DNA of 64,000 nucleotides from Planctomycetota bacterium (GTDB lineage: Bacteria > Planctomycetota > JAJSAM01 > JAJVHW01), in contig JAJRPF010000055.1 in assembly GCA_024280885.1 (NCBI GenBank), forward strand, positions 39,674 through 103,673, written 5' to 3'. Position 1 is the stretch's first letter, and each line of letters opens with the position of its first letter. Positions 5,182 through 46,720 of the stretch are shown here, in pieces. Position numbers and translations under genes: made by a program. The notes below the pieces were generated by a model. It saw only the letters and a list, made by a program, of their open reading frames with translations. It did not search any database and was not told the origin of the DNA.

Positions 5182-5320
5182 GCGTGGATCTCCGGAGGCA
5201 GGCGCGCACTGACGCGGCACCGCGCGAGGGACGCGTGCATGCTATCTCTTTGGCGGGCGGAGAGTGGCCTGATGCAAGATCTCCGCTCTCCCGGTCTGCG
5301 AGCGCGCTCCTCGCGCAGCG

Positions 5321-7186
5321 TCAGCGGCGTCCGCACCACAGCGCCCACTCGAGGAGCAGGACTCCGAGAGCCAGGAGTAGCAGTGGGTCGCGAAGCAGGA
5401 AGTTGCGGCGGATGCTGCCCGGTGTCGCCTGGACGGTGTCGCCGCCAAGTGTGAGCTCCGATCGCGGTGCCAGGCGGATCTCGTCGGAGTCGAAGAGCGC
5501 GAAGGTGCGCGGATCGCCGTCGCCGCCTTCGGGTGTCACGGTGTACAGACCGGCGTCGAATGTCTCGCGCGATTGGAGCCGTCCGTCGAGAGCGGCAACG
5601 GCTGCGACGTCCGCACCCGACGGGGTCGTGACCGTGAACGGCACGCCGTCGTCGGAGCGGATGATCGAGCCCGTGGGGAAGACTGGCGCCTCGTGCTCGC
5701 GCTGCACGTCGGCGAGCAGATGATCCAACGAATTCGCGAGCAGGAGTGGCCAGGCCAACTTGAGCGGGAGATTGGACGCGGCGGGATCGAACGCGAGCAC
5801 CAGGACCTCGCGTCCGGGGACAGGCGTCAGGAGGACGAGCGGCCCACCGGTCGTGTCCACGAGCGCCTCGGAGCGCTCATGGCCGGACAGTTGCATTGAC
5901 TCCTCGATCAGCAAGTCGTCGAACTGACACCGCACCGTCACCGGATGCGTGTGATGCCAGTCGATGACGACCGGATACTCCTGTCGTCCCGTCTCCCGCA
6001 AGCCGCTCTCGGGCGGCAGTACGTTGACGTAGATCTGCGCCGGGACATCCGGGATCGCGTCGAACGCCACACCGTCGAAGACGACGAGATCCACCTGCGT
6101 CCCCCCGTCGATGCTCGCCAGGGCTTCCGCGCTCGTGAGTTCGACCATCGCCAGCCCGGGGTGTAGGGCTTCCAGTTTCCGGGCGTCGAGGTAGAGCGAG
6201 GGCGCGTCGCGCACGAGGAGACCGAAGCGCGGGACGGCCGGACGTTGCACCAGCAGCGCCACGTCGTCCGCCGCGAGGATGTCGTTCCCGTCGAGGCGCA
6301 GTTGCAGGATGACCGGCGCGTCGCTCTCGGGTTCCTCGAGTTCGAAGAACGCAACGGCGTCACCGCCCGGGGCGAGCACGACCTCGCGGGCATCGGCAAC
6401 CTCTCCATCGCGCGAGAGGATGAGGGTGCGCGTGACGGGCTCGGCGGCGCCGTTTTCGATTCGCACAAAGAGTTGCGGTGGCTCTCCGGGGACGCTGGTC
6501 AACGTTATCTCGGCGATCCCCTGATTGGCATCGCTCTTGCCGACGCGCGCGAATTTCACCTCGCAGGAAAGGAGTGGGAGCCCGCCTGTCACGGCGCCAT
6601 CGGACACGATGATGACCTCGGGAGCGAAGCCCGGTGACGCTTTCGCAAACGACGCGGCGAGTCGCAATGCCGCCGCCGGCTTGCTCCCAAGATCGCGGGT
6701 CCGCAGCTCTTCGACAGCCTTCGTGAGGAGCGTCTCATCGCCAGTGAACGCGACCAGGACCTCGGCATCCCGATCGAACGCCACGAGCATGAGCTCGTCG
6801 GAGCCGCGCAGACCGTCGATCGCGTCGAGACAGAGTTCCTTCGCGACTTCCATCCGCGTCTGCTCTTCCTCGTCGGTGGCCGCCATGCTGCGACTGCGAT
6901 CGACGACGAGCACGATCCGGCGTGGCTGGTCGCCGACATCGAGGTCCAGACTGGCACCGGCGGCAGCGAGCGCGAAGAGCACGATCGACGCGACCTGCAG
7001 GAAGAAGAGCAGCGGTGTTCGGAGCCGCTGGAAGAGCGAGGACGCGCGCAGATCCTCCAGAGCGTTCTGCCAAAGGAAGGCCGCGGGGACGACGTGTTCC
7101 TGGCGACGCTGCTTCAGGAGATAGAGCGCGACGAGCGGCGCCAATGCCCCGAGCGCGGCCATTCCCAGCGGGAAGAGGAAGTTCAT
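5321..7186 (-). CDS. BatA-like aerotolerance-type membrane protein with von Willebrand factor A (VWA) domain
   Basis: N-terminus MNFLFPLGMAALGALAPLVALYLLKQRR is the classic BatA N-terminal TM region; VWA core VLVVDRSRSM...D; start ATG overlaps the upstream DUF58 stop (ATGA at 7183-7186). Confidence 0.8.
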   Translation of the reverse strand: MNFLFPLGMAALGALAPLVALYLLKQRRQEHVVPAAFLWQNALEDLRASSLFQRLRTPLLFFLQVASIVLFALAAAGASLDLDVGDQPRRIVLVVDRSRSMAATDEEEQTRMEVAKELCLDAIDGLRGSDELMLVAFDRDAEVLVAFTGDETLLTKAVEELRTRDLGSKPAAALRLAASFAKASPGFAPEVIIVSDGAVTGGLPLLSCEVKFARVGKSDANQGIAEITLTSVPGEPPQLFVRIENGAAEPVTRTLILSRDGEVADAREVVLAPGGDAVAFFELEEPESDAPVILQLRLDGNDILAADDVALLVQRPAVPRFGLLVRDAPSLYLDARKLEALHPGLAMVELTSAEALASIDGGTQVDLVVFDGVAFDAIPDVPAQIYVNVLPPESGLRETGRQEYPVVIDWHHTHPVTVRCQFDDLLIEESMQLSGHERSEALVDTTGGPLVLLTPVPGREVLVLAFDPAASNLPLKLAWPLLLANSLDHLLADVQREHEAPVFPTGSIIRSDDGVPFTVTTPSGADVAAVAALDGRLQSRETFDAGLYTVTPEGGDGDPRTFALFDSDEIRLAPRSELTLGGDTVQATPGSIRRNFLLRDPLLLLALGVLLLEWALWCGRR

Positions 7187-8058
7187 TTGAGCAACCCGCT
7201 TCTGCGCAACGACTCCAGGACAAGCGTCTCGAGGGGCGTGTCGGTCGTAGCGGTTGCAAGGACGATCTGTCGGCTACGGCAGAATTGGTCCAGTTGGCGA
7301 TCGTAGTCGCTGCGTGCTGCCTGGTAGCGCCGCAGGAGCGCCGGCGTGATCGAGATCTCGACGGCTGTCTCGTCCTCCGAATCGACCAAGCGCAGGTCAC
7401 CTTCGAGAGTCGGGGCTTCCTCCGCCGGTGTCAGAATACGAACGCAATACGGCTCCAATCCGCCGCGCACGATCGAACGCAGGTGCTGCCATGAGCCGTC
7501 GGGATGGAGCAGGTCGGACGCGAGGATCAGGATGCCCCGCGGGCGCCGCGTCGTGATCCATCGTCGTAGCGACTCGTCCAATCCCGTTGCGCCACCGACG
7601 GGGGCTCGCTCCAGCGCGTTGAAGAGGCGTTCCGCGCTGCGGATGCCGCGCAGATTCTTGACACCGACATCGCCGCCCTCGCCGGGGGACCAAAGCGACA
7701 CACGGTTGAGTCCCGCGAGCGCGACGTAGCCAAGAGCTGCCAGCACGCGCTTGGCGACCAGCACTTTCGATGGATCGCCGAAGTCCATCGAGGCACTGCG
7801 ATCCAGCACGAGGTGGATCTGCAGGTCCTCCTCGTCGTGGAAGAGCTTGATCATGAGCTTGTCGAGGCGCGCGTAGAGATTCCAATCGAGAAAGCGCAGG
7901 TCGTCGCCCGCTCCGTACGGACGGTGATCCGCGAATTCGACGGACGAGCCGCGGCGCACCGATCGACGTTCGCCGCGCTGCACACCACGGCGCAGTCGGC
8001 GAGCGACGATCTCGAGTCGTTCGAGACGCGCCAGGAACTCAGGTTCGAGCAATGCCAA
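7183..8058 (-). CDS. DUF58 family protein (MoxR-associated)
   Basis: MALLEPEFLARLERLEIVARRLRRG...FADHRPYGAGDDLRFLDWNLYARLDKL...LVLDRSASM is the characteristic DUF58 pattern; sits between the MoxR and BatA genes. Confidence 0.8.
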   Translation of the reverse strand: MALLEPEFLARLERLEIVARRLRRGVQRGERRSVRRGSSVEFADHRPYGAGDDLRFLDWNLYARLDKLMIKLFHDEEDLQIHLVLDRSASMDFGDPSKVLVAKRVLAALGYVALAGLNRVSLWSPGEGGDVGVKNLRGIRSAERLFNALERAPVGGATGLDESLRRWITTRRPRGILILASDLLHPDGSWQHLRSIVRGGLEPYCVRILTPAEEAPTLEGDLRLVDSEDETAVEISITPALLRRYQAARSDYDRQLDQFCRSRQIVLATATTDTPLETLVLESLRRSGLLK

Positions 8059-8070
8059 CGGAGGGTCCGA

Positions 8071-9093
8071 TCAGGCGGAGGCCAGCAGATCGGCTTGTTC
8101 GGTTGCACGCACGACTTCGGCAACGATGGCATCCGACTCCACGCCGTCGGCCTCCGCTTCGAAGTTACGGATCATGCGATGGCGCAGGACGGAGAGCGCA
8201 TCGCGTTCAACGTCGCGGAACGAGACGTTGAAGCGGCCCTCGAGCAGGGCGCGTACCTTGCCGAGCAGGATCAGCGCCTGCGCGCCGCGCGGGGACGAAC
8301 CGAAGCGCACGTACTTGTTGATAAGGTCGGTGGCGAATTCGGAACCCGGATGGGTCGCGATCACGAGTCGCGTCGCGTAGTCCGCAACGTGCGGCGCAAC
8401 GGCGACGTCGCGGACGAACGAACGCCAGGCCGAGACCTCTTCGCTATCCATCACGCGCTCCGCCACGGCGTTCTCGCGCCTGGTCGTGCGGGCGATGACT
8501 TCGTTCAATTCCTCGCGCGATCCGTAGCGCACGATCACCTTCACCATGAAGCGATCGAGTTGAGCCTCGGGCAGCGGGTACGTGCCCTCCATGTCGATCG
8601 GATTCTGTGTCGCGATCACGAGGAATGGCTCGGGCAAGAGTCGGGTGTCGCCACCCACTGTAACGCTGTGTTCCTGCATCGCTTCGAGCAATGCGCTTTG
8701 CGTCTTGGGTGTGGCGCGGTTGACCTCGTCGGCGAGCACGATATTCGCGAAGATGGGGCCCTTGCGGAACACCATCACGCGCTTGCCTGCGTCGTCCTCG
8801 GTCACGATGGTCGTACCGACGACGTCCGCAGGCATGAGATCCGGCGTGAACTGGATGCGTGCGAACTCGAGGTGCATCGCGTCGGAGAGCGTGCGCACGA
8901 GCATCGTCTTGCCGAGTCCCGGCACGCCTTCGAGCAGGATGTTCCCACCCGCGAAGAAGGTGCGCAGGACGGTGTCCAGGACATCGTCCTGACCGACGAT
9001 GACGCGCGCGAGCTGATGGCGCACCGCGCCGTAGCGTTCGCGGAAGAGATCCGCGCGTTCACGTGCATCCGCGGGCATCTGGAACGTACTCAC
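8071..9093 (-). CDS. MoxR-family AAA+ ATPase
   Basis: Walker A LLEGVPGLGKT, Walker B VLADEVNRA, MoxR-type sensor region; probable GTG start at 9093 overlapping the upstream stop (GTGA), with GGAGGA 6-10 nt upstream (ORF track start 9108 is TTG). Confidence 0.85.
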   Translation of the reverse strand: MSTFQMPADARERADLFRERYGAVRHQLARVIVGQDDVLDTVLRTFFAGGNILLEGVPGLGKTMLVRTLSDAMHLEFARIQFTPDLMPADVVGTTIVTEDDAGKRVMVFRKGPIFANIVLADEVNRATPKTQSALLEAMQEHSVTVGGDTRLLPEPFLVIATQNPIDMEGTYPLPEAQLDRFMVKVIVRYGSREELNEVIARTTRRENAVAERVMDSEEVSAWRSFVRDVAVAPHVADYATRLVIATHPGSEFATDLINKYVRFGSSPRGAQALILLGKVRALLEGRFNVSFRDVERDALSVLRHRMIRNFEAEADGVESDAIVAEVVRATEQADLLASA

Positions 9094-11981
9094 AGGTTCT
9101 CCTCCCAATCCGTCTTCTTCTTCGCGCGGCGCTTCGCACCGAGCAGATCGCTTGCAGGGTCCGCTTTCGGCGGCGGTTTGCCAGTCGCCTCGTCGTGGCG
9201 TGCTGGCCGCATCTGCGGGCCGACGTTCTTCTTTGGCGGGGCGTAGGCGCCCGATGGTTTCGGTCGCGTGATGTCACCTCCGAGGGCTGCTCCGGGCGCG
9301 GTGTCCGTCGGGGGGGGCGCCCCCGCCTTCGCGCGCTTCGGCAGCTTGAGCCGGAGGCGTCGCACGGCGACGTCTGTGACCAACAGGAGCGCAGCGAGGG
9401 CGGCGATCCATGGCCAGAGATCGACGGGCTCTGCTGACGAGATCAGCGCGCCGCTCCATGGCGCTAGCGCGGTATCCGGTGGGGGAGAGCCGTCGGCGGG
9501 GACGGGCGGTTCGGGGTCGAGCAATGTCGCTCCGGCCGCTTCGAGTTGCGCGAAGAGCCGCTCGTTCGAGGATTGTGCGAGGTGCTCTGCCGAGTACGAG
9601 ACACAGACGGCCGCGAGGGCCTGCCCGACGACGCCGGTCTCGGGGTCCTCGAACACGAGACTCGCGATGTGCGTCCCTACGGTCTGCGCGGGAAGCTTGC
9701 CTTCATAGCGCCCTGGCCCGCGCTGCTGGACACGGAACGACTCCGTGGTGCCGTCGGGGCGAATGACCGTTCCCTCGACCGATAGCCCGTTGCGGAACGC
9801 GCCGTCGGGTTCAAGCGCGTTCATGACGATGGTCGCCGTGCCGCCCTCGAGATCGGTGTCGATCTGCACACCGGGCCGTTCCAGAGAACGTGCCACAGAG
9901 CGCGCGACCTGGCCCCAGAACCGACCGTAGCCACCCCACGACAGCCAATCCCCGGACCAGCGTTCACTGGCATCGGAGGCCCACGCCGCCGTCTCGCCGA
10001 GTCCGTAGCGCCACCACGCGAGGAGCGGATCGTCGTGGGGACCGCCCATCAGTGGGTCAGCCTTCTCCTTCAGAGTCGTCACGACGTAACCGTGGAGTGG
10101 CGGGAAGTCGTCTTCGCCGAAGCCGCGCAACATCGTGTGTACGCCGACGATCGACGGCTGGAACGCCTCGTCGCGCCATGCTGATCGGCGCACGGTCACG
10201 GCTTCCTTGATGAAGATCTGCGGCAGGCGATCGAGCTGTGCCGACGTGACGTCGTAGTGATTGCCCCCCGCGTCGCTCGAGATCTGTCGCATCGCCCCCG
10301 ACCCGCCCGGGGAATGTGGGTCGACGCAAACCGTCGAGATCGTGATGCGCTGTTCGTGGATCTTGGACGAGAGCTTGGGGCCCGGGGGCGTCGCGTCGCC
10401 ATCCGAGATGATGATCATGTGTTTGGCCGCTGCGGTGCTCTGGCTCAACGCATGCTCTGCGAGTTGCATCGCACTCGCGAAGCTCGGCATATCCCAAGGC
10501 TGCGCGCGGTCGACCGCGGCGTAATGGCGTGACTTATTGCCCACTCGCTGGAGCGGGATGACCCACTGGTCTCCGCCGCCGCCCCATTCGATCACACCGA
10601 TTTCATCCTGCGACGAGAGCGCGTTGATCGCGGCTTTCGTGATTGTCCGCGCCGCCTCGTTGCCGCCCGCGAACTCGCATGTGTGCAGGATGACGATGAG
10701 CGCGCCGCTCGGGAGCACGCGCTTGTTCCGGATCTCCGACGAGAGGGGCAGGATCTCCTCGAGTTCTGTTCCCGCATAGCCGCCGGGGCCGTAGGTCTTC
10801 TCGCCGCCGATGCAGACGAGACCGACACCCAGATCGCGCACGGCAGACGCGAGCTGGCGGCGTTGCGTCTCGGTGAGCGCGAAGGCGGGGATGTTCTCAA
10901 GGAAGATCACGTCGTAGGGCGCGTAACCCGACGCATCCGATGGCAGCGAGTCCGCGCCCCCGGACTCGACGGGGATCGAGAGCTCGTCACGCAGCGCATC
11001 GGCGAGTTGCGAACCATTGACGCCCGATGCCACGAGAACGCGTCCCGGGCCCTTCACCTGCGTTGCGGCGACGCCCCGATTGTTGCGCGCGTCGCCGTCG
11101 ATCTCCGGGCTGACGACGACCTCGACCGTGTGGAACCCCGGCCCGCGGAACGCGGCACCGATCTCGAAGACGTTGCGGCCCTTGGCGAGCACGACGTCCT
11201 CGGAGGCGACCTCCTCGCCCGCCACTAGGTATTGGACACGCGCCGCGACGTCGTCGTGCGTGCTCTCGATGACAGCCCGGATCGGCACCGGCTGGTCTTC
11301 GGGAGCCGTCGCCGGTGCCACGAGCTTCCTGACGATGACGTCGCGCTCGCGCTCGTAGCGCAGTGGGAAAATCTGCACGTCCACGCCACTTGCGATGAGC
11401 TCCGCGACCGCCTTCTCGGCGTCTCCGCGCGTCTGGTTGCCGTCGGTGGCAATCACGATGCGACGCGATCCACCCGGGGGGAACCCAGCGCGTGCCAGTC
11501 GCAATGCCCCTTCGAGATCGGTCTCGCCCTTCGGCAGAACCGATCCGATGTGATCCGGATCGACGGGCACAGTCTCCAAGCGTTGCTCGGCCGAGATACG
11601 CGTGAATGGAGCCTCGACCGCGGCGCCGTCGGCGAAGACCACGAGGGCGGCATCGTCGTCTTCGCCACGACGCTCGGCGGCGCGCTTGATGAACTCGCGT
11701 GCGCGGTCGAGTGCTGCGGGAGGAACGCTCTCGCTCACGTCCATGACGAAGGCGACCGATCGGAACGGGGAGTCGATCCGGATACGCGGCACCGAGAGCG
11801 CGAGCGCGAGTGCCAGGAGCAGTAACAAGCGGGCGACGAGCGCGGCCTTGTCTCCTGCGCGCAACCCGCCCGACGCCGTGCGCAGCGTGAGCCAGACGAA
11901 GAGCGGGCTGACCAAGAGCACGAGCAGCCACAGCGGACGCGCGAGCTCCAGTGCGAACGCGATCAGCGGCACACCGGTCAT
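9090..11981 (-). CDS. Large membrane-anchored protein: BatA-like N-terminal TM region, VWA domain, GATase1/ThuA-like domain, basic C-terminal tail
   Basis: 963 aa. N-terminal TM pair; VWA motif FVMDVSESV...TDG; central region GALIVILHTCEFAGGNEAAR resembles class-I glutamine amidotransferase-like folds; ATG at 11981 overlaps the upstream permease stop (ATGA). Confidence 0.7.
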   Translation of the reverse strand: MTGVPLIAFALELARPLWLLVLLVSPLFVWLTLRTASGGLRAGDKAALVARLLLLLALALALSVPRIRIDSPFRSVAFVMDVSESVPPAALDRAREFIKRAAERRGEDDDAALVVFADGAAVEAPFTRISAEQRLETVPVDPDHIGSVLPKGETDLEGALRLARAGFPPGGSRRIVIATDGNQTRGDAEKAVAELIASGVDVQIFPLRYERERDVIVRKLVAPATAPEDQPVPIRAVIESTHDDVAARVQYLVAGEEVASEDVVLAKGRNVFEIGAAFRGPGFHTVEVVVSPEIDGDARNNRGVAATQVKGPGRVLVASGVNGSQLADALRDELSIPVESGGADSLPSDASGYAPYDVIFLENIPAFALTETQRRQLASAVRDLGVGLVCIGGEKTYGPGGYAGTELEEILPLSSEIRNKRVLPSGALIVILHTCEFAGGNEAARTITKAAINALSSQDEIGVIEWGGGGDQWVIPLQRVGNKSRHYAAVDRAQPWDMPSFASAMQLAEHALSQSTAAAKHMIIISDGDATPPGPKLSSKIHEQRITISTVCVDPHSPGGSGAMRQISSDAGGNHYDVTSAQLDRLPQIFIKEAVTVRRSAWRDEAFQPSIVGVHTMLRGFGEDDFPPLHGYVVTTLKEKADPLMGGPHDDPLLAWWRYGLGETAAWASDASERWSGDWLSWGGYGRFWGQVARSVARSLERPGVQIDTDLEGGTATIVMNALEPDGAFRNGLSVEGTVIRPDGTTESFRVQQRGPGRYEGKLPAQTVGTHIASLVFEDPETGVVGQALAAVCVSYSAEHLAQSSNERLFAQLEAAGATLLDPEPPVPADGSPPPDTALAPWSGALISSAEPVDLWPWIAALAALLLVTDVAVRRLRLKLPKRAKAGAPPPTDTAPGAALGGDITRPKPSGAYAPPKKNVGPQMRPARHDEATGKPPPKADPASDLLGAKRRAKKKTDWEENL

Positions 11982-13618
11982 CCTTCGAACCTGGTTCGAT
12001 AGAGGCGTGCCAGACGGCGGTAGAGCGCGTGGCCGAAGGCGACGTACAACGCCATCCAGATGGCCAGGGCGACGAGACCGGATGTGACGTCGCTTGCCGA
12101 GGGAGCCGCCACCACAGCGGTCTCGATGCTGGAGCCGCCCGTCCGCAGGAGTGCCGCTGGCAGGAGCGCTGCCGCGATCGGGTTGGCGCCGAGCGCCGAT
12201 CCCCAGGCAACGAAGTCATCGAGCCGCGAGAAGGCTCCTGCGAGCGGCCAGCCCACCTGGCCGGCGAGCAAGATGCCGACGATCCCCAGCATGGTCATGG
12301 TGCGCGCCACGGCACGCTGCGGCTCGCGTTGGTCGAGAGATTGGTAGAGCGCGAACGTCGCCCATGCCACGAGGACGACCACGCCACTGATCGCGACCGC
12401 CGGGGCCGCGAAGGGCGAGAATACGCCGATCACGGCGCCGTAGATCAGGTGGCCGAGAGGGACGAGCAGACAGGGCAGCAGAGCGCGCAGAACTCCCGCG
12501 AGTTTGCCGATGACTACGTCTGCCGGGGGTAGCGGAGCGGCGCGCAACAACTCGATCGTGTGGGACTCCTTCTCCTGAGCGAGCGCGGTTGCGCCAGCCG
12601 CCGCTACGGCAAGCACGATGAGCAGGCATTGAAACGCGAGGATCGCGAAATGGCCCAGGATGGACTCGGCTTCGACAGAACCGTTCCAGACCGCGACTCC
12701 GTAGGCCGCCTCCGACAGTAAGAGCAGCGCCAGTAACCCGCGCGCTGGGCTGCGCTTGCCGAGCAACGAAGCGCGCCGCAATTCGTGGTCGAGTACCGGG
12801 TTCTCGTGGCGAAGTGGACGGCAGCCGTTGCGGGAGAGGACAGGCGCCGGGGCGTCGGAGCCGTGGGCCTCGCGGTTCAGTCGCCATGCGGCCGCCATCA
12901 CCGCGAGCCCGGCCGCGCCGATCGCTGCGAGCACGAGCAGGAAGACTCCAGGGAACGTGCCCTCGCCGCGGCCCTCGGTCGAGACTGCGCGCATGACGGC
13001 GTGGATGGGCGAGACGGCCGTGGCCGCGGTCAAACTGGCGAGCGAACTCAGCGCCCACTCGCCGAGCAGCCAGAGCGCTGCGATGACCGCAGCTCCGAGC
13101 AGGTAGGCCGTGACGACGGCACTCGCGGTGCGACGTGCGAAGGCCGAAACGAGAAAGGCCGGTGCACCGAGAATCAGAACGGCCGCACCTGCGGCACAGA
13201 CCGCCTCGACGATCTGAATCCCACGCACACCGCCGTAGAGCAACGCCAGGGCGAGCGGCGGACAGGTCGCGAAGACAAGCAGGAAGAGCTGTCCTGCCCG
13301 CGCCGCGAACGCGCCGCCGGCGATCCCGATCGGGGAGAGCGGTGTGGCGAAGAGCACGGGGAGTCCACCCGAAGCGCGCGCATGCACGAGGACGGTTGCG
13401 AACGACCCCGGCGCAGCGAGACCGAGGAGGAGCGCTCCCAATCCGATGGTCGCCGTGAGCAGGGAGGTCCCGACGTCGTCGTACGAATCCATCGTATGCG
13501 CGCCGACGATCCGGACGAGAAAGAGCAAGCCCATTCCCGCGGCGAAGCCTGTGCGCAAGAGGAGGAAACGCCACGACGAACTGAACGCGACGTAGTCGCG
13601 CTCGAAGACAGCGTTCAC
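11978..13618 (-). CDS. ABC-2 type transporter permease (GldF-like polytopic membrane protein)
   Basis: 546 aa, many predicted TM helices, Ala/Leu/Gly-rich; located in an operon with an ABC ATPase and a second permease. Confidence 0.6.
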   Translation of the reverse strand: MNAVFERDYVAFSSSWRFLLLRTGFAAGMGLLFLVRIVGAHTMDSYDDVGTSLLTATIGLGALLLGLAAPGSFATVLVHARASGGLPVLFATPLSPIGIAGGAFAARAGQLFLLVFATCPPLALALLYGGVRGIQIVEAVCAAGAAVLILGAPAFLVSAFARRTASAVVTAYLLGAAVIAALWLLGEWALSSLASLTAATAVSPIHAVMRAVSTEGRGEGTFPGVFLLVLAAIGAAGLAVMAAAWRLNREAHGSDAPAPVLSRNGCRPLRHENPVLDHELRRASLLGKRSPARGLLALLLLSEAAYGVAVWNGSVEAESILGHFAILAFQCLLIVLAVAAAGATALAQEKESHTIELLRAAPLPPADVVIGKLAGVLRALLPCLLVPLGHLIYGAVIGVFSPFAAPAVAISGVVVLVAWATFALYQSLDQREPQRAVARTMTMLGIVGILLAGQVGWPLAGAFSRLDDFVAWGSALGANPIAAALLPAALLRTGGSSIETAVVAAPSASDVTSGLVALAIWMALYVAFGHALYRRLARLYRTRFEG

Positions 13619-13692
13619 GAGTCGCTCCTATCGTGCGAACGACTCGTGTTCACGCGACGATCGGCATCTGCGAGGCAACCGGCCAGCATCGA

Positions 13693-14064
13693 CTACTTGT
13701 CTTCGCCCAAACCGTCGAAGTACTCGCGAATGCCGTCGCGGTAGCGGCGCGGGATGACCTCGGCATCGAGGGGCGCTTGCGCGTCGGCACGCGCACGCTC
13801 GATGGCGGCGCGTCCGCCGGGCGTCATCTCCCCGGGCTTCGGAAGGCCGCGGAACGTCGTTACCGAGATCCGCCCCCGCGGGTCAATGCGACCGCGCACG
13901 CGTTCTGTCTTCGTTCCGGTTTCCAGGGTCTCGTCGAAGGGGACACCGCTGCCGCTTCCAGTCCCTTCGCCACCGGTTCCATTGCCGTTTCCCTGTCCGC
14001 CGTTGCCGTTGCCGTTTCCATTCCCATTGCCGTGCAGACCGCACGATCCGTTACCGCCGCCCGT
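13693..14064 (-). other. Open in-frame continuation of the upstream coiled-coil ORF past a single TGA: Gly/Asn/Ser-rich linker plus ~69-aa C-terminal domain
   Basis: Same frame as 14065..15390. Codon-periodic GNGNGNGNGNGGQGNGNGTGGEGTGSGSG, then ...RGRIDPRGRISVTTFRGLPKPGEM...IREYFDGLGEDK ending TGA at 13693. Could be a readthrough/Sec extension, a nonsense-mutated gene tail, or an independent small ORF (ATG 13899). Confidence 0.35.
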
Positions 14065-15390
14065 TCAGGTCCCGCCAGCGCCGCCGAGGCGCAACTTGCG
14101 ACCGCCGGACATCTCGCCGCCGCCCTGTCGCAGCATGTCGGCAAGATCCTCCATCCCGGCCATCTCGTCGAGCGAGTCGAGCAACTCCTGCAACTCCTCG
14201 CGCGACAACTCCGAGATATCCATCGAGTCCGACTCGCCGGCTTCGCTCTGCAGGTCCTCGTAGCTTTCGCCCTGCTCCATGCGCGAAGCCAGTTCGCGCA
14301 TGCGCTCGGCGATCTTCTGCAGGAGGTCCTCATTGCCGATTGCGCGGAGCTGCTCGCGCAGCTTGTCGGCCCCCATGGCGCCGGCTGACTCCATCGCCTT
14401 GCGCAGCGCATCGAGTCGCGACGCCATGTCGCGGAGGTCCTTCGCCGACGGTGGCTCGCCGCTCTCGGCGGCCTTGTCCAGGCGCTCCTGCAACTCCTTC
14501 ATCTGTCGGTCGAGACTCTCGAGACCGGTCTTCGACATCTGCCGCAGAAGCTCGGCCAGTTGACGGTTGGTCTTGGCCGCCTCGGGGTCCGACGTCGGCT
14601 TCTTCAATCCCGCGCGGCGACGCGCGGCGTCGCGGGCCAGATCCGAGAGTTCGTTCAGTTTGCGGAGCGCAACTTCGCGCCGGGGCGGCGTGCGCACCAT
14701 GGCCTCGGCCTGCTTCTGAATTTGCTGCGCGACGCGCTCCAGATCGACCTCCTCACGCTCCTTGGCACCTTCCTTGACGCGCTTCGCGGCCTCGGCCATG
14801 CGACGTGCGACGTCCGCGATGCGGTCTTCGTCGGCGAGTCGTGCGGCCTTCTCGACCGGCGTCTCTCCAGCCTGGATCGGCGGCTGGATCATGTAGAGCC
14901 CGCCCGCGACGGCAAGCGCCACGGCGGCGGTCGCGAGCGGTCGCCGGAGAACGCGTGGGCGGAACGCCCGGCGGAGCGCGTCGCGCGTGACGTGGGCGGC
15001 ACTTGTGGCTGCGTCCTCGACGACGAGCGGCGCCATCGGTCCGGCCGTCCGCCCCTCGCTCTGAGCCCAGACCGACGTGGATACGCGCTCCTGCAACCCG
15101 AGGGCGCGGTCGGCGCGGGCGGCCAGTGCGCGGCGGTCGTAGCGCCGCCCGAGGATGCCGATCAGAGGGACGATCAACGTGGCGGAGAAACCGGCGACGG
15201 CGACATGCAGCAACTCGGGGCGCCACCAACCCGTCGCACGGAGCGCGATACCGAGCGCCAGGAGAAGCGCGCCGCACGCACTGCCCCATTGGAGGTCTTC
15301 GAGCGCGCCTGCCAGTGCGAGGCGCGCACGCACACGCGTGAGCAGTCCGTCCGTATTGTGCATTGCTGTCTTGTGCATTGCGTCTGGCAT
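14065..15390 (-). CDS. Membrane protein with two N-terminal TM helices and a long acidic coiled-coil region
   Basis: 441 aa; TM segments ALLLALGIALRATGWW and FSATLIVPLIGILG; then K/E/R/A/L-rich heptad-like sequence; ends at TGA 14065-14067 but the frame stays open for a further 372 nt. Confidence 0.55.
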   Translation of the reverse strand: MPDAMHKTAMHNTDGLLTRVRARLALAGALEDLQWGSACGALLLALGIALRATGWWRPELLHVAVAGFSATLIVPLIGILGRRYDRRALAARADRALGLQERVSTSVWAQSEGRTAGPMAPLVVEDAATSAAHVTRDALRRAFRPRVLRRPLATAAVALAVAGGLYMIQPPIQAGETPVEKAARLADEDRIADVARRMAEAAKRVKEGAKEREEVDLERVAQQIQKQAEAMVRTPPRREVALRKLNELSDLARDAARRRAGLKKPTSDPEAAKTNRQLAELLRQMSKTGLESLDRQMKELQERLDKAAESGEPPSAKDLRDMASRLDALRKAMESAGAMGADKLREQLRAIGNEDLLQKIAERMRELASRMEQGESYEDLQSEAGESDSMDISELSREELQELLDSLDEMAGMEDLADMLRQGGGEMSGGRKLRLGGAGGT

Positions 15391-15446
15391 CGCTCTCCGG
15401 GCCTCCTATCGACTCTCTCAGAGTAACAGACGATTGAGCCTGGAGT

Positions 15447-17174
15447 TCAATCCCGACTCTTCTCAAGTGCCGCAGCCGATCGCAGGGCCAGCAGCGCGGC
15501 GCTGATGGCATATCCGCCGACGGCGAAGACCACGGTCAGGAACTGCTCGGTGCCGGGCATCTGGCTTGAGTTCGCAGACACCGAATCGAGAGCCCACGTG
15601 CCATAGAACGGCAGAACCGGCGGTAGCGCGATCGCGACGAACTTGAGGAAGTCGTTGTCCATTCTCGTGATGGCCACGATGAAGAACATCAGGACGATGG
15701 CCGCGATCGATCCGAAGAAGATACCGAATGTCCGTAGTGCGGCGTGCGTGGGGGAGCGCGCCGTGATCGAGGCGCGCAGGCCGAGCGCTCCGGCGAACGT
15801 GAGGAGCGCGGTCGAGATGACGACCCAGCCCAGGATCCCCGGCACACTGAAACCCCCGATGGCGACGATGATCCCGCCATAGAGGACACCGATCCCTAGA
15901 AGTGGGGACGTGGCGAGTAGGGCACCCATGAGTGTGCCGATGGCGATCTCCTCGCTGCGCATGGGGGTCACCAGCAACAGGTCGAGAGATCCGCGTCGCC
16001 GCTCCGACGCGATCGAGCGTGACGTAGCCGCCAGCACGCGTAGAACTCCGAGTGCGGTGAGGATGCCGAGCCCGGCAACCGCGGCGACCTGCAGCTCGCC
16101 TCGGCGGTTGAAACCGAGCGTCTCAAGCGCCGTCCAGAGGATGCCAGCGGTGATCATTGCGCCCAGAAGTGGGAGTGCGTAGCCGCCGAGCGTGGGGTGC
16201 GAGAGCAGCGAGCCCCGCACCCCGCGATCGAGGATCGGGTGGCCGAGGAAGACGCCTCTTGACCGCCGACCGCCGCTCGATCTACCTGCTCGGCCCGGCA
16301 AGAAGCGCCGCACCTGCGTCCATAGTCCCTCACCGGTTGACTCTCTGGCGACGGCCCGCGCGGCGAGCAAGAGAGCGATGACGACTGCTCCCGCGACGAC
16401 CGCAGCATGCCAGTACAACAGGTCTGGGTCGTGTCCGCCGCTCCGCGCTCCCTGCAGCGTGTTGAACCATGCGACGAAAGGGACTGCGACAGTGACGTTC
16501 AACGACTCGATGATCACTTCGGCCGGGACCCCGAAACCCGCTTGATCGAAAGCGGCGAGGATCGCGGTTGGCACCACGGGACCGAGCGCCGCCAAGAGAT
16601 AGGCGGCCAGTAGCGCCTGCGAGACGGAGCGCAGCCGAGCCGACATGAGGATTCCACACGCGACGCCGAGTGCGGCGAAGCAGAGTGTGAGGACGATCAC
16701 TTCGACGAACGCGTTGAGCGGGACGCCGCCGTAGAGCAGGCTGACGGCGGCCACCGGGAGCATCGCCAAGACGAGCGTCAGGATGGCGAGGAAACGCGAG
16801 ATGAACTTCGCCGTGACGAAGGCGAGTGGACTCACGGGAGATGCGAGTACGAGGCTCAGAGTTCCGCCTTCGCGCTCGGATACGATGGCAGGCGCGGCCG
16901 TTGCCGGCGCGATCAACATGATCAGCAGCGGCACCACCACCGCAGCGGCGGTGAAGATCGCGCGCCCGATCACGTCGCGTTCGGAGCCGGAGCGTTCGAT
17001 CGCGATCAACGCGACCACGAGAGCCGAAATCGCAGCGACCGCGGTGCGTATGGCGACGAACCGGCTGCGCGAGACTGTTGCCAGGAAATCGCGTTCCACG
17101 ACGGCCAGACTGGCGGCGCTCTTCCGTGCGAGCGAGCGGAACGGGCGACCGAGCCGCCCCACGCTGGACCCCAT
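15447..17174 (-). CDS. ABC-2 type transporter permease
   Basis: 575 aa polytopic membrane protein immediately downstream (8 bp) of the ABC ATPase gene. Confidence 0.65.
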   Translation of the reverse strand: MGSSVGRLGRPFRSLARKSAASLAVVERDFLATVSRSRFVAIRTAVAAISALVVALIAIERSGSERDVIGRAIFTAAAVVVPLLIMLIAPATAAPAIVSEREGGTLSLVLASPVSPLAFVTAKFISRFLAILTLVLAMLPVAAVSLLYGGVPLNAFVEVIVLTLCFAALGVACGILMSARLRSVSQALLAAYLLAALGPVVPTAILAAFDQAGFGVPAEVIIESLNVTVAVPFVAWFNTLQGARSGGHDPDLLYWHAAVVAGAVVIALLLAARAVARESTGEGLWTQVRRFLPGRAGRSSGGRRSRGVFLGHPILDRGVRGSLLSHPTLGGYALPLLGAMITAGILWTALETLGFNRRGELQVAAVAGLGILTALGVLRVLAATSRSIASERRRGSLDLLLVTPMRSEEIAIGTLMGALLATSPLLGIGVLYGGIIVAIGGFSVPGILGWVVISTALLTFAGALGLRASITARSPTHAALRTFGIFFGSIAAIVLMFFIVAITRMDNDFLKFVAIALPPVLPFYGTWALDSVSANSSQMPGTEQFLTVVFAVGGYAISAALLALRSAAALEKSRD

Positions 17175-17182
17175 TTCGGGGA

Positions 17183-18139
17183 CTACGCCACCCTGCCCTG
17201 CGTGACGTGGAGGAAGATGTCCTCGACGCTGAGGGTCGTCTCCTCGAGATGCAGGAGCTGCAGATCCGCGCGCACGATCTCTCGGGCGAGAAACGACGTG
17301 TCTTCGACGTCGGTGCGAATGCGGATGAGGACCTCGCCCGCGCCACCGGGCTTCAATGCTTCGACATCGGGGTGCCCGCGGAAGAGGTCGAGCACGGCGT
17401 TCGCCGAACGATCGTCCTCGCCCTCTTCGTGGACGCGGATTCTGATCACGCGCTCCGCACCGAGCTTCTTGCGCGCTTCGTCGATCGGCCCCGCGTAGAG
17501 CAGGCGGCCCTGCTCGATGATGCCGATCGTGTTACACATCGCGCCGATTTCCGAGAGGACATGCGACGAGATCAGCAGTGTCTTGCCCATGCGCCGGAGT
17601 TGCAGCACGAGCTCCTTGAACTCGATGCGTGCCCGGGGATCGAGGCCCGCGGCGGGCTCGTCGAGGAGCAGTACCTGCGGGTCATGGAGCAGGCAACGCG
17701 CGAGTCCGAGGCGCTGCCCCATGCCGCGCGAGAGTCCCATGACCGGCGCGTCGCGCTTCTCGCCGAGTTCCGTCAGTTCGAGCACCTCCGCAATGCGCTT
17801 GCGACGCGGTTCGCCGCGAATGCGATACGCCGCAGCGAAGAATTCGAGGTACTCGCCGACCAGCATGTCGTCGTAGATCCCGAGCACGTCGGGCATGTAA
17901 CCGATCAGCGGCTTCACGTCGTCGGAACGGCGCACGACATCGATACCGCAGACCTCGGCGCGTCCGCCGCTCGGTCGCACGAGCGTGGCGAGGATCTTGA
18001 TCGTCGTGGACTTGCCAGCGCCGTTGGGGCCGATGAAACCGAACGCGTCGCCGGCCTCGATCGAGAGGTCCAGATCGCGGAGCGCCGTCGTGCCGCGATA
18101 GACCTTAGTCAACCCCTCGATGTGAATAGCGAGACTCAT
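17183..18139 (-). CDS. ABC transporter ATP-binding protein
   Basis: Walker A GPNGAGKST; signature LSRGMGQRLGLA; Walker B LLLDEP; H-loop; ATG 18139 overlaps the upstream stop (ATGA). Confidence 0.9.
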   Translation of the reverse strand: MSLAIHIEGLTKVYRGTTALRDLDLSIEAGDAFGFIGPNGAGKSTTIKILATLVRPSGGRAEVCGIDVVRRSDDVKPLIGYMPDVLGIYDDMLVGEYLEFFAAAYRIRGEPRRKRIAEVLELTELGEKRDAPVMGLSRGMGQRLGLARCLLHDPQVLLLDEPAAGLDPRARIEFKELVLQLRRMGKTLLISSHVLSEIGAMCNTIGIIEQGRLLYAGPIDEARKKLGAERVIRIRVHEEGEDDRSANAVLDLFRGHPDVEALKPGGAGEVLIRIRTDVEDTSFLAREIVRADLQLLHLEETTLSVEDIFLHVTQGRVA

Positions 18140-20274
18140 GGCAAGTCGATCTCCATGCGAATGAGGACGTACGTCGAGCCTTCGTCCGCCGTTCCGGGAA
18201 GCGCGATGGGGCTCTCGTTCGCGGACGCCAGCAGCAGTGCCTTTCCGGACCGCAGCGCGTCGCCGCGTCCGATGCCGGTGCGCGCAAAGAGAACCTGCCG
18301 ATTGAGAGAGAGTGGTTGCGGCACTCCGGGCGCGAGCGGCATGCCGTCGATCCCGGATGTCGAGGTCCTGGAGAGGAAGCCGAGGAAATCGAGGACGTCG
18401 TTGCGCTCGGGGTCCTTCTGCAGTGAGCCGCCGTCACGCCACGTCGAGCCGAACCCCGCGTTCGCGACGTGCCACGTCGCCGTCTCCTCCTGCCCGGCAG
18501 GAATCCGCCCGAAGGCGTACATCCCATCGCGACCCGGCATGATCACGCTGACGGCTGCGAGGTCGACGGGAAGCCCATTGACGAGGCGCAACTGCGGGCG
18601 CGCACCATCGCCGATCCACTCCGCCTCGATGGTGCGCCCGGATGGCCCCTGCGCCACCGTGCGGACGGAGCGCTGTGAGCGGAAGGCGACCTGGACGCTC
18701 ACGGTCGGATCGAGCGTCTCGGTTCCCGCGACGACTACGGGCAGCGCACTGCCGACTGAACCGACCGCGCCGCCGCCGGGGAGCCTTGCACCGCCGACGA
18801 TCGTGGGGAGTGGGTAGTGGAGTTCCTGATCTGCACCGCGCGGGGAGTAGTACGCGACGAGGTCGTGGACGCGGACCACTTGCCGGCCGTCACGCCCGCC
18901 GTCGGCTAGATCCACGAGCACGATGCGATTGACGACGGCGCCCGATGCGAAGACGAGGAACGACGCGCCGTAGGCGACTGCGGTGAAGAGCAGCACGGCA
19001 CCGCCAAACGTGAATGTCGTCAAGCGCTGCTTCCCAAGGCGCCGCAACACGATCCAATCGAGCGGTCCGACCACGAGAACGTAGAGCGCGAGTGCGAGGA
19101 GCACGAGGATGAGTGGCGGAGCGGAGAACGCGTCCTTGCTCAGGATCTTCCCAACGGCTTCGTCGACATCGGTCGTCCCGCCGAACTGGAACGCGGACGC
19201 CGTCTCGGCGATCTCCTTCGTCCGGATCGGCGCGAGGCGACCGGAGAGAATACTGCCGACAGCTTCGAAGTGGCCGTGATCGGTGGCAGACCGGAGTGCC
19301 GCGCGCGCATCGAACGCGAGGAGTCGGATGCGGCCGTTGCCGAATGGGCGATCGACGTAGGGGACGAATTCGCCTTCGAAGACGAGCGGCAACCATACGC
19401 CCTCGAACGCCAGCCCGTCGCGCTTGGCCTTCTGCCCGGTTGCCTGCAACAAGATCGGCAGCAGTCGTTCGTACGACCTTCGTTCCGTCGCTCTCTTCGC
19501 GCGGCGCGGCAGGAAGGGAGCGAGGGGGGACGACCCGAGGGAGCCGACGTCGTCGCCGGGCGACACCACCAGCATGCCGCCGAGGGCGACCCAATCGAGA
19601 ACGCCATCGAGCGCCGCTGGGTCGGCGAGGACATCCGGCGAAGGATCGATCAGGACGAGCGCGTCGAAACCCTCGATCGAGAACGGTGCGGAAACGAGCG
19701 CCTCGAGGGCAACGGGCGCCGCCTCGATCCCATCGAGTTCGGCTGCCCACTCCTCGTACGACGGACTGAGCGCCTGTGGCAGTGTTGAGACGAGCACGTT
19801 TCTCTCGTCGCCGACGACGCCCACGATCCGCCCCGCCGAAGAGAGTTCAGCGCGCGCGAGCGGCTGCGGTCCCTGAACATCGATCGTCATGCGACCACGC
19901 GTATTGGTCTCGCCCATGTGCCGGACAGGAAGCGGCGGCGTGGTCTGGACAAAGAGCGAGAGCGAGGACGCGTAGGCCTGTGGCGCAGGGAGGATAAACC
20001 ACTCGCGGCGGGTTGCCCCTGGACCGACAAAGACGCTGCGGGTGTGACGCATCGGCGGACTGCCGAGAGCCTTCGATTGCGAGATCGTGAGACTGACGGC
20101 CGCCGCGTCGCGCCCGTCGTTGCGCAGCGTCACGGAGACGGGTGTCGTGCAACCGGCGATCCAGCGTCCGCCGTGGCCGAGACTCACGTCGACATGGATA
20201 TCGGCCCGGGCTGTGCTGAGCGGGGCCGCGAGGAGCACGAGCAGGGTGGCGAAGGCAGCGAGAAACGCTTTCAC
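18136..20274 (-). CDS. GldG-like ABC-transporter-associated large periplasmic/membrane protein
   Basis: About 712 aa with signal peptide KAFLAAFATLLVLLAAPLSTARA and a C-terminal TM helix; position upstream of the ABC ATPase/permease matches gldG-gldA-gldF order; start is either GTG 20274 (GTGA overlap with NHL gene stop) or ATG 20373. Confidence 0.55.
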   Translation of the reverse strand: MKAFLAAFATLLVLLAAPLSTARADIHVDVSLGHGGRWIAGCTTPVSVTLRNDGRDAAAVSLTISQSKALGSPPMRHTRSVFVGPGATRREWFILPAPQAYASSLSLFVQTTPPLPVRHMGETNTRGRMTIDVQGPQPLARAELSSAGRIVGVVGDERNVLVSTLPQALSPSYEEWAAELDGIEAAPVALEALVSAPFSIEGFDALVLIDPSPDVLADPAALDGVLDWVALGGMLVVSPGDDVGSLGSSPLAPFLPRRAKRATERRSYERLLPILLQATGQKAKRDGLAFEGVWLPLVFEGEFVPYVDRPFGNGRIRLLAFDARAALRSATDHGHFEAVGSILSGRLAPIRTKEIAETASAFQFGGTTDVDEAVGKILSKDAFSAPPLILVLLALALYVLVVGPLDWIVLRRLGKQRLTTFTFGGAVLLFTAVAYGASFLVFASGAVVNRIVLVDLADGGRDGRQVVRVHDLVAYYSPRGADQELHYPLPTIVGGARLPGGGAVGSVGSALPVVVAGTETLDPTVSVQVAFRSQRSVRTVAQGPSGRTIEAEWIGDGARPQLRLVNGLPVDLAAVSVIMPGRDGMYAFGRIPAGQEETATWHVANAGFGSTWRDGGSLQKDPERNDVLDFLGFLSRTSTSGIDGMPLAPGVPQPLSLNRQVLFARTGIGRGDALRSGKALLLASANESPIALPGTADEGSTYVLIRMEIDLP

Positions 20275-21203
20275 GGATTGCGCCAGTCTGCGGCCCTGGC
20301 GTCGAAACGCTGCACGCGGTGATTCCCCATGTCGGCAACATACAGGTAGCCAGCGTGCCACGCGATGTCCCACGGCTCTCGGAATTCTCCGGGTTCCGTT
20401 CCCTCTCTGCCGAGCACGCCGGTCAACGCGCCATCGGCGCGCAAGCGCAGAATGCGATGGCCGACGAGATCGGTGACGTAGAGCGTGCCGTCGGGGGCGC
20501 GGCAGAGGCCGTACGCGAGGACCTCGTCACCGAAGGGCCACTCCGGCAGTTGGCCGAGACACGCGCCGTCCTCTCCGAAGTGAACGATGCCCGCGACCTG
20601 ATCCGCGACGAGACTTCCGCCATCGGGGAGCGGGACGACCCCCATCGGTCGCACGAGCCCGCCGTCGGCATCGTCCGGCCCCCCGAACATCGACTTCGGG
20701 GAGCCATCGAGGGCGAGTACCTGGATGCGGTTCGTCGCTCCCATACCGTGATCGCTGATCAGGAGGTCGCCGTCGCTCCGCAAGCTGACGCGCTGCGGAA
20801 AGAGGAACTCGCCGGGTTGCACGCCGTAATCGCCGAAGACCGTCTCGGCTCCGGTCACCGGATCGATGAGACGCATGCGCGAGGAGTGCGTGTCCGCGAC
20901 GGCAAGACGTCCGTCGGGCAGCCAGGCCAGACCGATGGGCAAGCCGCGGCGCACGTCGCCCGGAACGATCGTGAGGGTCTGGCGCGGCGATCCGTCCAAC
21001 TCGAGGATCTGCAGTCGCCCGGTGCGGTCAAGGACGGCGATGCCCTGTTCCGAGACGGCGATCCCGCGCGGGTCGCGAAACTCCCCGTCACCGAGCCCCG
21101 GGCGTCCGATGACGTAGGGCGGATCCGGCGCGCACGCAGCGACCGTCGCGCCCAGGGCGACGATCGCAAGCAGCGGCAGCAACCGGCGCGAGAGGGTGAT
21201 CAC
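20271..21203 (-). CDS. NHL-repeat (six-bladed beta-propeller) lipoprotein
   Basis: Repeated motifs GEFRDPRGIAV, GQLPEWPFGD, GEFREPWDIAW typical of NHL repeats; lipoprotein-like signal LLPLLAIVALGATVAAC; likely GTG start at 21203 (track ORF extends to 21296). Confidence 0.7.
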   Translation of the reverse strand: MITLSRRLLPLLAIVALGATVAACAPDPPYVIGRPGLGDGEFRDPRGIAVSEQGIAVLDRTGRLQILELDGSPRQTLTIVPGDVRRGLPIGLAWLPDGRLAVADTHSSRMRLIDPVTGAETVFGDYGVQPGEFLFPQRVSLRSDGDLLISDHGMGATNRIQVLALDGSPKSMFGGPDDADGGLVRPMGVVPLPDGGSLVADQVAGIVHFGEDGACLGQLPEWPFGDEVLAYGLCRAPDGTLYVTDLVGHRILRLRADGALTGVLGREGTEPGEFREPWDIAWHAGYLYVADMGNHRVQRFDARAADWRNP

Positions 21204-33004: not shown

Positions 33005-33012
33005 GCCGACCC

Positions 33013-43951: not shown

Positions 43952-44560
43952 TCAGCCGTTCAGCGCTTCGTGTACCTTGCCGACCATTTCCGGGCCCGGC
44001 GTCAAGGTCGCGTCGCCGTCGTCTTTCCACTTCGAGGGGCAACCTTCGTTGGCCTTCTTCGAGAGGTAGACGTTGGCCTTGAACTTGCGCAGCAACTCAT
44101 CGATGTTGCGGCCCATGTTGTAGAAGTTGACCTCGGAGTTCATCAGCACGCCCTGCGGGTTGATGATGAACGTGCCGCGCAGACACAGGCCGGACGTCTT
44201 GTCGTAGACGCCGAACTGCCGACCGAGCTTGCCCGTCGGGTCGGCCCCCATCGGGTACTTGACGTCGGCCAGCTCACCCTCGTGGCGCTGCCACGCAAGG
44301 TGCACGAACTCGGTGTCGGTGCTGACGGTCACGATCTCGCAACCCATCCGTTCGAAGCGCGTGTACTGCTCTGCCAGAGCAGCGAATTCGGTCGCTCAGA
44401 CGAATGTGAAGTCGGCGGGATAGAAGAAGAGAACCGTCCACTTCCCGGCCTCCTTGGCCTCCGCCAGACTGAACCTCCCGAATCCGCCAGTCTTGGGGTC
44501 GAACGTGTTGATCTCGAAGTCCTTGACCTCGCGACCGAGGCCTACCTTTGGCTTGCTCAT
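43952..44560 (-). CDS. prxU: Selenocysteine-containing typical 2-Cys peroxiredoxin (AhpC/Prx1 family; PrxU-like), in-frame TGA = Sec at the peroxidatic position
   Basis: Track splits it into 44396..44692 and 43952..44347, which share a frame and are separated only by TGA at 44396-44398. The TGA sits exactly where the peroxidatic Cys belongs (FYPADFTFV-U-ATEFAAL; canonical FTFVCPTE). Resolving Cys present (NEGCPSKW). ATG 44560 preceded by AGGAGGA. Confidence 0.8.
44366..44382 (-). promoter_or_regulatory. Putative bacterial SECIS stem-loop (CUGCUC-UGGCA-GAGCAG) starting 14 nt 3' of the in-frame UGA
   Basis: 6-bp perfect stem with a 5-nt loop containing GG, at the spacing expected for a bacterial SelB-binding hairpin directly downstream of a Sec codon. 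Confidence 0.5.
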
Positions 44561-46717: not shown

Positions 46718-46720
46718 GTG

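Follow-up and report, generated by a model that had tools for sequence, protein, structure and literature searches.

Operons that combine a MoxR AAA+ ATPase, a DUF58 protein, and BatA/VWA membrane proteins are widespread, and their function has been open since the 1999 paper on the Bat operon. Bat-type operons have been tied to aerotolerance, to the integrity of the envelope, and to expression regulated by oxygen, but no mechanism has come from these links (PMC5700661). Bacteroides, Leptospira, and Borrelia have Bat-like MoxR sets that lack ABC-2 genes (PMC5700661), and the Rhizobium operon RL3499–RL3502, as it appears in the citations of that paper, is an envelope-integrity operon and the counterpart of Bat. 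Here, we analyze a 64,000-nucleotide stretch (the window) of a Planctomycetota metagenome-assembled genome (MAG), in which a Bat-like set is joined to an ABC-2 exporter set and to the gene of a coiled-coil protein with a conserved in-frame UGA codon. The resulting ten-gene block at positions 5321–21203 is real and is conserved in uncultured Planctomycetota, and its coiled-coil gene probably encodes an undescribed selenocysteine (Sec) protein. We give a probability of roughly 0.6 to the joint reading that the block is one operon for a multi-subunit envelope complex of two older modules, with a coiled-coil subunit made by Sec recoding.

According to the list of open reading frames (ORFs) and the Pfam and NCBIfam domains, positions 5321–21203 are filled by ten ORFs on the minus strand, in the order given by a preliminary description that had been made from the sequence alone. 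The features are as follows, in the direction of transcription, with the divergent neighbor last.

20271–21203, minus strand: NHL-repeat lipoprotein, 310 amino acids, GTG start at 21203, signal peptide ending ...TVAAC (Pfam NHL, E 8.8e-20; lipobox)
18136–20274, minus strand: 712-amino acid exported auxiliary protein with signal peptide, Ig-like β-sandwich, GATase1-like/GIFT α-β domain, transmembrane hairpin (∼387–443), and more β-sandwiches
17183–18139, minus strand: ABC-2-type ATPase, DrrA/GldA-like (ABC_tran, E 2.3e-24; TIGR01188 drrA, 232.9 bits, and TIGR03522 GldA, 220.5 bits, both under cut-off)
15447–17174, minus strand: duplicated ABC-2 permease A, 575 amino acids, ∼12 transmembrane helices (ABC2_membrane_2, E 3.2e-17 in two stretches; hydropathy)
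13693–15390, minus strand: transmembrane-anchored coiled-coil protein, 565 codons including one UGA (no Pfam or NCBIfam family)
14065–14067, minus strand: in-frame UGA, candidate Sec codon, after ...GGAGGT (in frame at 13/13 independent loci)
14029–14047, minus strand: hairpin AUCGUGC-GGUCU-GCACGGC resembling a selenocysteine insertion sequence (SECIS), loop 24 nt past the UGA (fit to the bacterial SECIS, bSECIS, model)
11978–13618, minus strand: duplicated ABC-2-like permease B, 546 amino acids, ∼12 transmembrane helices (ABC2_membrane_3, E 3e-5, under cut-off; hydropathy)
9090–11981, minus strand: 963-amino acid VWA+GATase1_like+VWA_3 membrane protein (domain and fold comparison)
8071–9093, minus strand: MoxR AAA+ ATPase, 340 amino acids, GTG start at 9093, Shine-Dalgarno sequence GGAGGAG (AAA_3, PF07726, E 7.6e-62; AAA_lid_2)
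7183–8058, minus strand: DUF58 protein, a VWA-like MoxR partner, 12-bp gap after MoxR (PF01882, E 1.3e-30)
5321–7186, minus strand: BatA-type membrane protein, 621 amino acids, with BatA double-transmembrane N terminus, VWA_2, and C-terminal transmembrane helix (PF07584, E 2.7e-9; VWA_2, E 1.9e-15; hydropathy)
21259–22959, plus strand: divergent TPR protein, its start 55 bp apart from that of the NHL gene (TPR matches; homologue in relative L002, also divergent)

Inspection of the start codons places five 4-bp overlaps exactly where they had been reported: GTGA at 20271–20274, ATGA at 18136–18139, ATGA at 11978–11981, GTGA at 9090–9093, and ATGA at 7183–7186. By our count, such overlaps occupy 5/9 junctions of the block versus 2/17 same-strand junctions elsewhere in the window (Fisher p = 0.028). 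The remaining gaps had been described as shorter than 80 bp, which is true of three junctions (8, 56, and 12 bp) and fails for the step from the coiled-coil gene to permease B, where the ORF stops at TGA 14065–14067, 446 bp short of the next start at 13618. When the frame is read through this TGA to the TAG at 13693, the gap shrinks to 74 bp. The description of this junction therefore holds only if TGA 14065–14067 is read through. A sequence scan of the block found no sigma-70-like promoter sites inside it, and terminator-like sites are in no excess over shuffle expectation.

By inspection of the DNA, the UGA is in frame at 13/13 independent loci, comprising 11 loci of the main clade and two of a distant clade (L015 and L016). 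All 11 main-clade loci carry the pattern GGT-TGA-xGG(x)SC..HG, after which the frame stays open on to a conserved C-terminal domain. The two distant loci read FC(K/Q)NCGLxxGGT-TGA-7 codons-T-TGA, again in frame. The chance that the frame is kept at 12 further loci is (1/3)^12, or ∼2e-6, a value that overstates the significance because it takes related loci as independent. Among the gene calls, ∼20 close homologues of 429–441 amino acids all end in ...RLGGxGGT, and all public assemblies examined break the gene in two at the UGA. One further locus, L017 (P0182), terminates at the UGA and contributed no downstream sequence.

The downstream domain behaves as coding sequence. Pairwise substitutions in it fall on codon positions 1/2/3 as 582/543/1514, indicating that it is translated in the frame of the UGA, and selection at the protein level, in the same frame, extends over 120–150 codons downstream of the UGA. 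A TGA can arise from GGA by a single mutation, and this one stands in a Gly-rich tract, as might be expected of an operon with a dead gene, be it a pseudogene or the product of an assembly error. However, two divergent clades and 13 independent assemblies, made in different projects, share the identical feature, and the downstream frame is under purifying selection, which makes a dead gene extremely improbable.

The read-through product has a defined architecture. About three transmembrane helices (residues 63–81 called by hydropathy, the other two judged by eye) are followed by a coiled coil of ∼250 amino acids, a Gly-rich hinge with U and C, and a conserved C-terminal domain of ∼65 amino acids (ISVTTFRGLPKPGE...IPRRYRDGIREYFDGL), which is reached along 123 further open codons to the TAG at 13693. 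The family comprises 625 clusters among 1.84 billion representatives, most of them contiguous proteins of 520–600 amino acids with this same architecture. The contiguous homologues match no Pfam or NCBIfam family; a DUF4175/TIGR02302-like identity, sought with both collections, found no match either.

Alternatively, the UGA might be a true stop that separates two genes, one for a 441-amino acid coiled-coil protein and one for a downstream protein of ∼70–110 amino acids. Public gene calls divide the sequence in this way, and at some loci an in-frame ATG is present in the Gly-rich stretch. However, the called starts vary between loci, whereas the frame is the same at all 13. The window offers no ATG at all, and its first GTG (13899) lacks a Shine-Dalgarno sequence, and a start there would remove part of the conserved region. 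Since the distant relatives are also single proteins of the same architecture, we regard two genes as quite improbable. TGA is an ordinary stop in 8/10 genes of the operon. We also scanned the window for other in-frame TGAs that interrupt long open stretches, but at 66% GC the noise was too high for the result to be used; base composition is 62–69% G+C across 2-kb bins.

Each UGA is followed by a hairpin in nearly all cases. At most loci of the main clade the stem begins 11 nt past the UGA and reads GUCGUGC-GGUCU-GCACGGC, and at most loci GGUCUGCAC lies 18 nt past the UGA, as in E. coli fdhF. The fdhF 9-mer occurs at the identical offset in L001, L003, L012, and L019, whereas the spacing in L006 and the window is 21–24 nt; within the window the 9-mer GGTCTGCAC has a single occurrence, at the hairpin. 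Altogether, 16/17 UGA sites carry a hairpin that fits within the published bSECIS constraints and has a stem of 7 bp or more without gaps, compared with a null of 7.6% at random codons of the same genes. The innermost stem pair changes between G·U, G-C, C-G, and A-U across loci while the encoded residues change as well (CGLHG, CGTHG, CRRHG, CSLHG). In the second clade, the stems are unrelated, yet the loop is the same GGUC(U).

The element thus shares with the fdhF SECIS the order of UGA, 18 nt, and apical GGUCUGCAC, a 7-bp upper stem, and a loop with G at its first two positions. It differs in its host gene, which encodes a membrane-anchored coiled-coil protein and not an oxidoreductase, and in its lower stem, which is not conserved. 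A further difference is that some lineages have two UGAs, each with its own hairpin. In L002 (7944–7976), two in-frame UGAs lie ten codons apart, and the second is located in the 3′ arm of the first UGA's hairpin. In L015 (10122–10148) and L016 (2310–2336), the second in-frame UGA falls inside the loop of the first UGA's hairpin. Across these lineages the UGAs are 8–10 codons apart with one hairpin per UGA, and the loop of the second hairpin is GGUC(U) in L015 and L016 and AGUUC in L002.

The window contains a second gene with an internal TGA, which was found through its Pfam matches. This 2-Cys peroxiredoxin (43952–44560, minus strand) has TGA 44396–44398 exactly at the position of the peroxidatic cysteine (FFYPADFTFV-U-ATE); among families, it matches AhpC (6.8e-56) and the selenoprotein PrxU (1.5e-51) best. 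The Shine-Dalgarno sequence of the gene is GGAGGA, and a hairpin of 8 bp begins 12 nt past its UGA. By gene-finder logic it is split at the in-frame TGA, and its product is a member of the PrxU/AhpC family of Sec-peroxiredoxins, which is already known. Sec-peroxiredoxins have been verified by experiment as a selenoprotein family (PMC13188914), and the UGA-peroxiredoxin is good indirect evidence that the source organism decodes Sec. Just upstream, at 45542–47584 (minus strand), lies a second MoxR-type pair, an AAA_5 ATPase (46721–47584) and a VWA_CoxE protein (45542–46717) 3 bp apart, flanked by two ORFs without Pfam match.

From the conserved frame, the hairpins, and the peroxiredoxin gene, we consider it probable that the UGA of the coiled-coil gene is decoded as Sec. 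The family has no counterpart among the 119 prokaryotic selenoprotein families listed in a 2026 review (Table 1, PMC13188914), and the read-through protein matches no NCBIfam selenoprotein model.

The block was compared with contigs of relatives, of which L001, L002, and L003 were obtained through homologues of the 963-amino acid protein and L005, L006, L013, L018, and L019 through collection scans and look-ups; the genome scan gave 5 loci and the metagenome scan 3. All named records among them are MAGs labeled “Planctomycetota bacterium.” The same gene order is found in L001, L002, L003, L005, L006, L013, and the L018/L019 fragments, with collinearity mapped by tblastn and 50–76% identity of the 963-amino acid protein. 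In seven relatives the overlaps are retained together with the gene order. The 4-bp overlap is kept in 4/5 relatives between the NHL gene and the gene of the 712-amino acid protein, in 5/5 between the latter and the ATPase gene, in 6/7 between the genes of the 963-amino acid protein and MoxR, and in 7/7 between DUF58 and BatA. The border between the ABC-2 set and the MoxR set, from permease B to the 963-amino acid protein, overlaps as ATGA/GTGA in 6–7/7. This conservation suggests co-expression and makes it very likely that the ten genes form a single conserved operon.

The flanks of the block are more variable. A gene for a Zincin_1-like protein of 246 amino acids (L001 70–810; L003 1–732) shares 4 bp with the start of the NHL gene in L001, L003, and L005 and is absent upstream of NHL in the window and in L002. 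The number of genes in the block is lineage-dependent. The divergent TPR neighbor is conserved and takes the same position in L001 and L002, whereas the gene downstream of BatA is different in each locus. In the window, this downstream gene (2680–5220, minus strand) encodes an exported FG-GAP-repeat protein of 846 amino acids and lies 100–140 bp from BatA on the same strand; because its place is not conserved in the relatives, it is probably outside the operon. The picture of a coupled and conserved block in the preliminary description thus stands as regards the conserved overlaps, which join two separable sets, and needs correction in that the gene count varies by lineage and the conserved UGA with its SECIS-like hairpin, the feature that tells most about the block, had been overlooked.

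More distant loci show that the two modules are separable. On the low-GC contig L014, genes for a 792-amino acid protein, an ABC ATPase, an ABC-2 permease, and a coiled-coil homologue stand together, no DUF58 or BatA gene is called on the whole contig, and the sole MoxR-like gene lies ∼6.6 kb off, at the contig end, past several opposite-strand genes. L015 combines the coiled-coil gene with four permeases and an ABC ATPase. In L016, a VWA+GATase1_like+VWA_3 gene comes directly after the coiled-coil gene. The coiled-coil protein is therefore regularly found with ABC-2 permeases, and its link to the MoxR/VWA set is seen more than once.

These arrangements bear on the possibility that the two halves are mere neighbors, an ABC-2 exporter operon beside an independent Bat-like operon without a common function. 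The ABC-2 and coiled-coil module of L014, which has no adjacent DUF58 or BatA, would fit this, as would the Bat-like sets that occur elsewhere without ABC-2 genes. However, the overlap at the border of the two sets is kept in nearly all relatives, the order is fixed across the whole range of identities, the coiled-coil gene abuts a VWA/GATase1-like gene in the second clade, and even L014 has a MoxR gene at a distance of a few kilobases. We thus consider mere adjacency rather improbable and retain the joint reading of one operon for one envelope complex.

Compared with the Bacteroides Bat operon, the block shares MoxR (AAA_3), a DUF58 gene beside MoxR, and the BatA double-transmembrane domain with VWA. 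In contrast, it lacks BatD and the BatC/BatE TPR(+SH3) genes, and TPR repeats appear only in the divergent neighbor. The 963-amino acid VWA+GATase1-like+VWA protein may take the place of BatB, and the set is joined by an overlap to the ABC-2 exporter set and the UGA-containing coiled-coil protein. The block had already been described as not being the canonical Bacteroides bat operon, which agrees with the Pfam search, as no BatD, TPR, or SH3 gene was found within it.

The 963-amino acid protein begins with two transmembrane helices, followed by a VWA domain with an intact metal-ion-dependent adhesion site (MIDAS; DxSxS), an Ig-like domain, and a PF07090-type GATase1-like domain. The latter carries an inserted second VWA domain and is followed by a β-sandwich, a C-terminal transmembrane helix, and a disordered basic tail. 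According to hydropathy and the N-terminal sequences, the 963-amino acid protein and BatA share a 2+1 transmembrane layout. The choice between GATase1/ThuA and DUF4159 for the middle region, raised in the preliminary description, falls to a GATase1-like domain of the PF07090 (GATase1_like, formerly DUF1355) or STM3548 type, which resembles STM3548 (2gk3) and 3rht from Planctomyces limnophilus; DUF4159 gave no match.

The ABC-2 set scores far below the cut-offs for the gliding-motility transporter GldAFG of Bacteroidota. The ATPase scores 220.5 bits with the GldA model TIGR03522 (cut-off 402.6), and the permeases score 39.8 and 21.8 bits with the GldF model TIGR03518 (cut-off 288.5). The block has two duplicated 12-transmembrane-helix permeases, and its 712-amino acid auxiliary protein matches no GldG or ABC_transp_aux model. 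This protein had been called GldG-like, for which we find no support in its sequence; it has no significant Pfam or NCBIfam family, and the likeness is at the level of the GATase1-like/GIFT fold. Its homologues give weak DUF4350 matches only, in 14/24. GldG has terminal anchors, whereas the 712-amino acid protein combines a signal peptide with a central transmembrane hairpin.

A MoxR–vWA–β-propeller ternary system of conflict or anti-phage defense was also considered and rejected. The match of the MoxR protein to bpMoxR (E 5.4e-13) is far weaker than that to AAA_3 (7.6e-62), PADLOC returned generic P-loop matches only, and the partner proteins are membrane or exported proteins.

We propose that the first module is an ABC-2 exporter with one ATPase and two duplicated 12-transmembrane-helix permeases. 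Its exported accessories would be the NHL β-propeller lipoprotein, the 712-amino acid GATase1-like/GIFT protein, held by its transmembrane hairpin, and the TolA-like coiled-coil protein. The second module would be a Bat-like MoxR set, in which the MoxR AAA+ ATPase is cytoplasmic and is joined by DUF58 and by two BatA-type membrane proteins with VWA/MIDAS and non-catalytic GATase1-like domains. The 4-bp overlaps may couple the synthesis of the subunits and keep it stoichiometric. By analogy with other MoxR–VWA pairs, MoxR and DUF58 would remodel or assemble the VWA/MIDAS scaffold proteins, which may in turn act with the exporter and its GIFT-fold auxiliary on some envelope component. The coiled-coil protein, by analogy with the architecture of TolA, would form an arm that spans the periplasm. 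Its hinge, with Sec and a nearby Cys, may be redox-active; in the contiguous relatives, this region contains Cys or CxxC in 48/63 proteins. As UGA decoding would be required for the C-terminal domain, the synthesis of this domain would depend on Sec insertion. We propose this biochemical role of the machine with low confidence.

A number of observations weigh against the joint reading. As for the operon, L005 has a 3-kb gene inserted within the block after permease A (6679–9681), which encodes a CarboxypepD_reg-repeat protein of 1000 amino acids, and in L003 two overlaps have turned into short gaps. The predicted periplasmic location of the coiled coil and hinge follows from the charges around the transmembrane helices, one of which (63–81) is called by hydropathy. 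As for Sec, neither selA, selB, selC, nor selD is among the scanned ORFs of the window, and ARAGORN finds no tRNA in the window and hence no tRNA-Sec, so that the peroxiredoxin gene is the sole basis for Sec decoding in the source genome. The only contiguous close relative, P0128 (L013 2643–4352), is an uninterrupted coiled-coil gene within the same operon, and at the site (…KRLRIGLGRGENGSG…) UGA, Cys, and hairpin are all missing; it may stem from a lineage in which the use of Sec was lost. In the low-complexity alignment of the homologues, no Cys is column-aligned with U, and a low-complexity Gly-rich hinge is an atypical place for Sec in selenoproteins. As for the hairpin, 6/8 stem pairs are invariant, covariation is confined to one pair, and the shuffle control is weak (49/500). 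An Rfam scan of the hairpin region (E up to 10) returned chance matches only and no SECIS family. Minimum free energies of folding and their z-scores are no better than those of shuffles, and folding energy is therefore not used as evidence.

Several of these points would also be expected if the UGA were read through, or served as a regulated stop, without Sec. A near-cognate tRNA would then decode it, and the hairpin would act as a pause or stimulator that fixes the ratio of a short isoform, made up of the transmembrane part and the coiled coil, and a long one that also has the C-terminal domain. The conserved frame and downstream domain agree with this explanation, as do the lack of a Cys aligned with U, the absence of visible Sec machinery from the window, and P0128, which has neither U nor C at this position and thus indicates that a redox residue is not indispensable. 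However, the geometry and loop of the hairpin match the SelB-binding SECIS of fdhF exactly and satisfy the bSECIS model, the double-UGA lineages have one hairpin for each UGA, and the genome contains a Sec-peroxiredoxin gene. To our knowledge, hairpin-stimulated read-through of UGA without SelB is not an established mechanism in bacteria. We therefore judge read-through without Sec unlikely and keep to Sec decoding of the coiled-coil gene.

Other parts of the window contain further gene sets. At 57852–63828 (minus strand), three genes with two 4-bp overlaps encode a GatD-like protein (Asparaginase + GatD_N), a GatE-like protein (GatB_N + GAD), and a class-I Glu/Gln-tRNA synthetase that has a GatB_Yqey domain at its C terminus. 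As a normally archaeal pair, GatDE is unusual in a Planctomycetota MAG. At 30998–38571 (plus strand), an SPFH/Band7 protein is followed after 8 bp by a DUF3686 + DUF7902 + AAA protein of 1852 amino acids. The third VWA system of the window is a VIT + VWA + TPR protein of 1074 amino acids (51691–54915, minus strand), whose gene is convergent with that of an adjoining SWIM-SNF2 helicase (48466–51636, plus strand).

The splitting of the coiled-coil gene at its UGA represents a systematic annotation error in public assemblies. The hairpin is fdhF-like, and E. coli SelB may recognize it. More tentatively, the coiled-coil subunit might found a new selenoprotein family with one or two Sec residues in a flexible hinge, in which selenium supply and redox state would control whether the ABC-2/MoxR-BatA machine is completed and perhaps also whether it is cross-linked; we hold this to be possible and rather doubtful. 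A redox-active subunit fits the history of the Bat operon, which is not in itself evidence for such a role. If the gating were true, the “aerotolerance” (Bat) systems would gain a concrete redox-active component. By tying a Bat-like set through a conserved overlap to an ABC-2 exporter and a probable selenoprotein, the block points to redox chemistry in the envelope as a possible setting for these operons.

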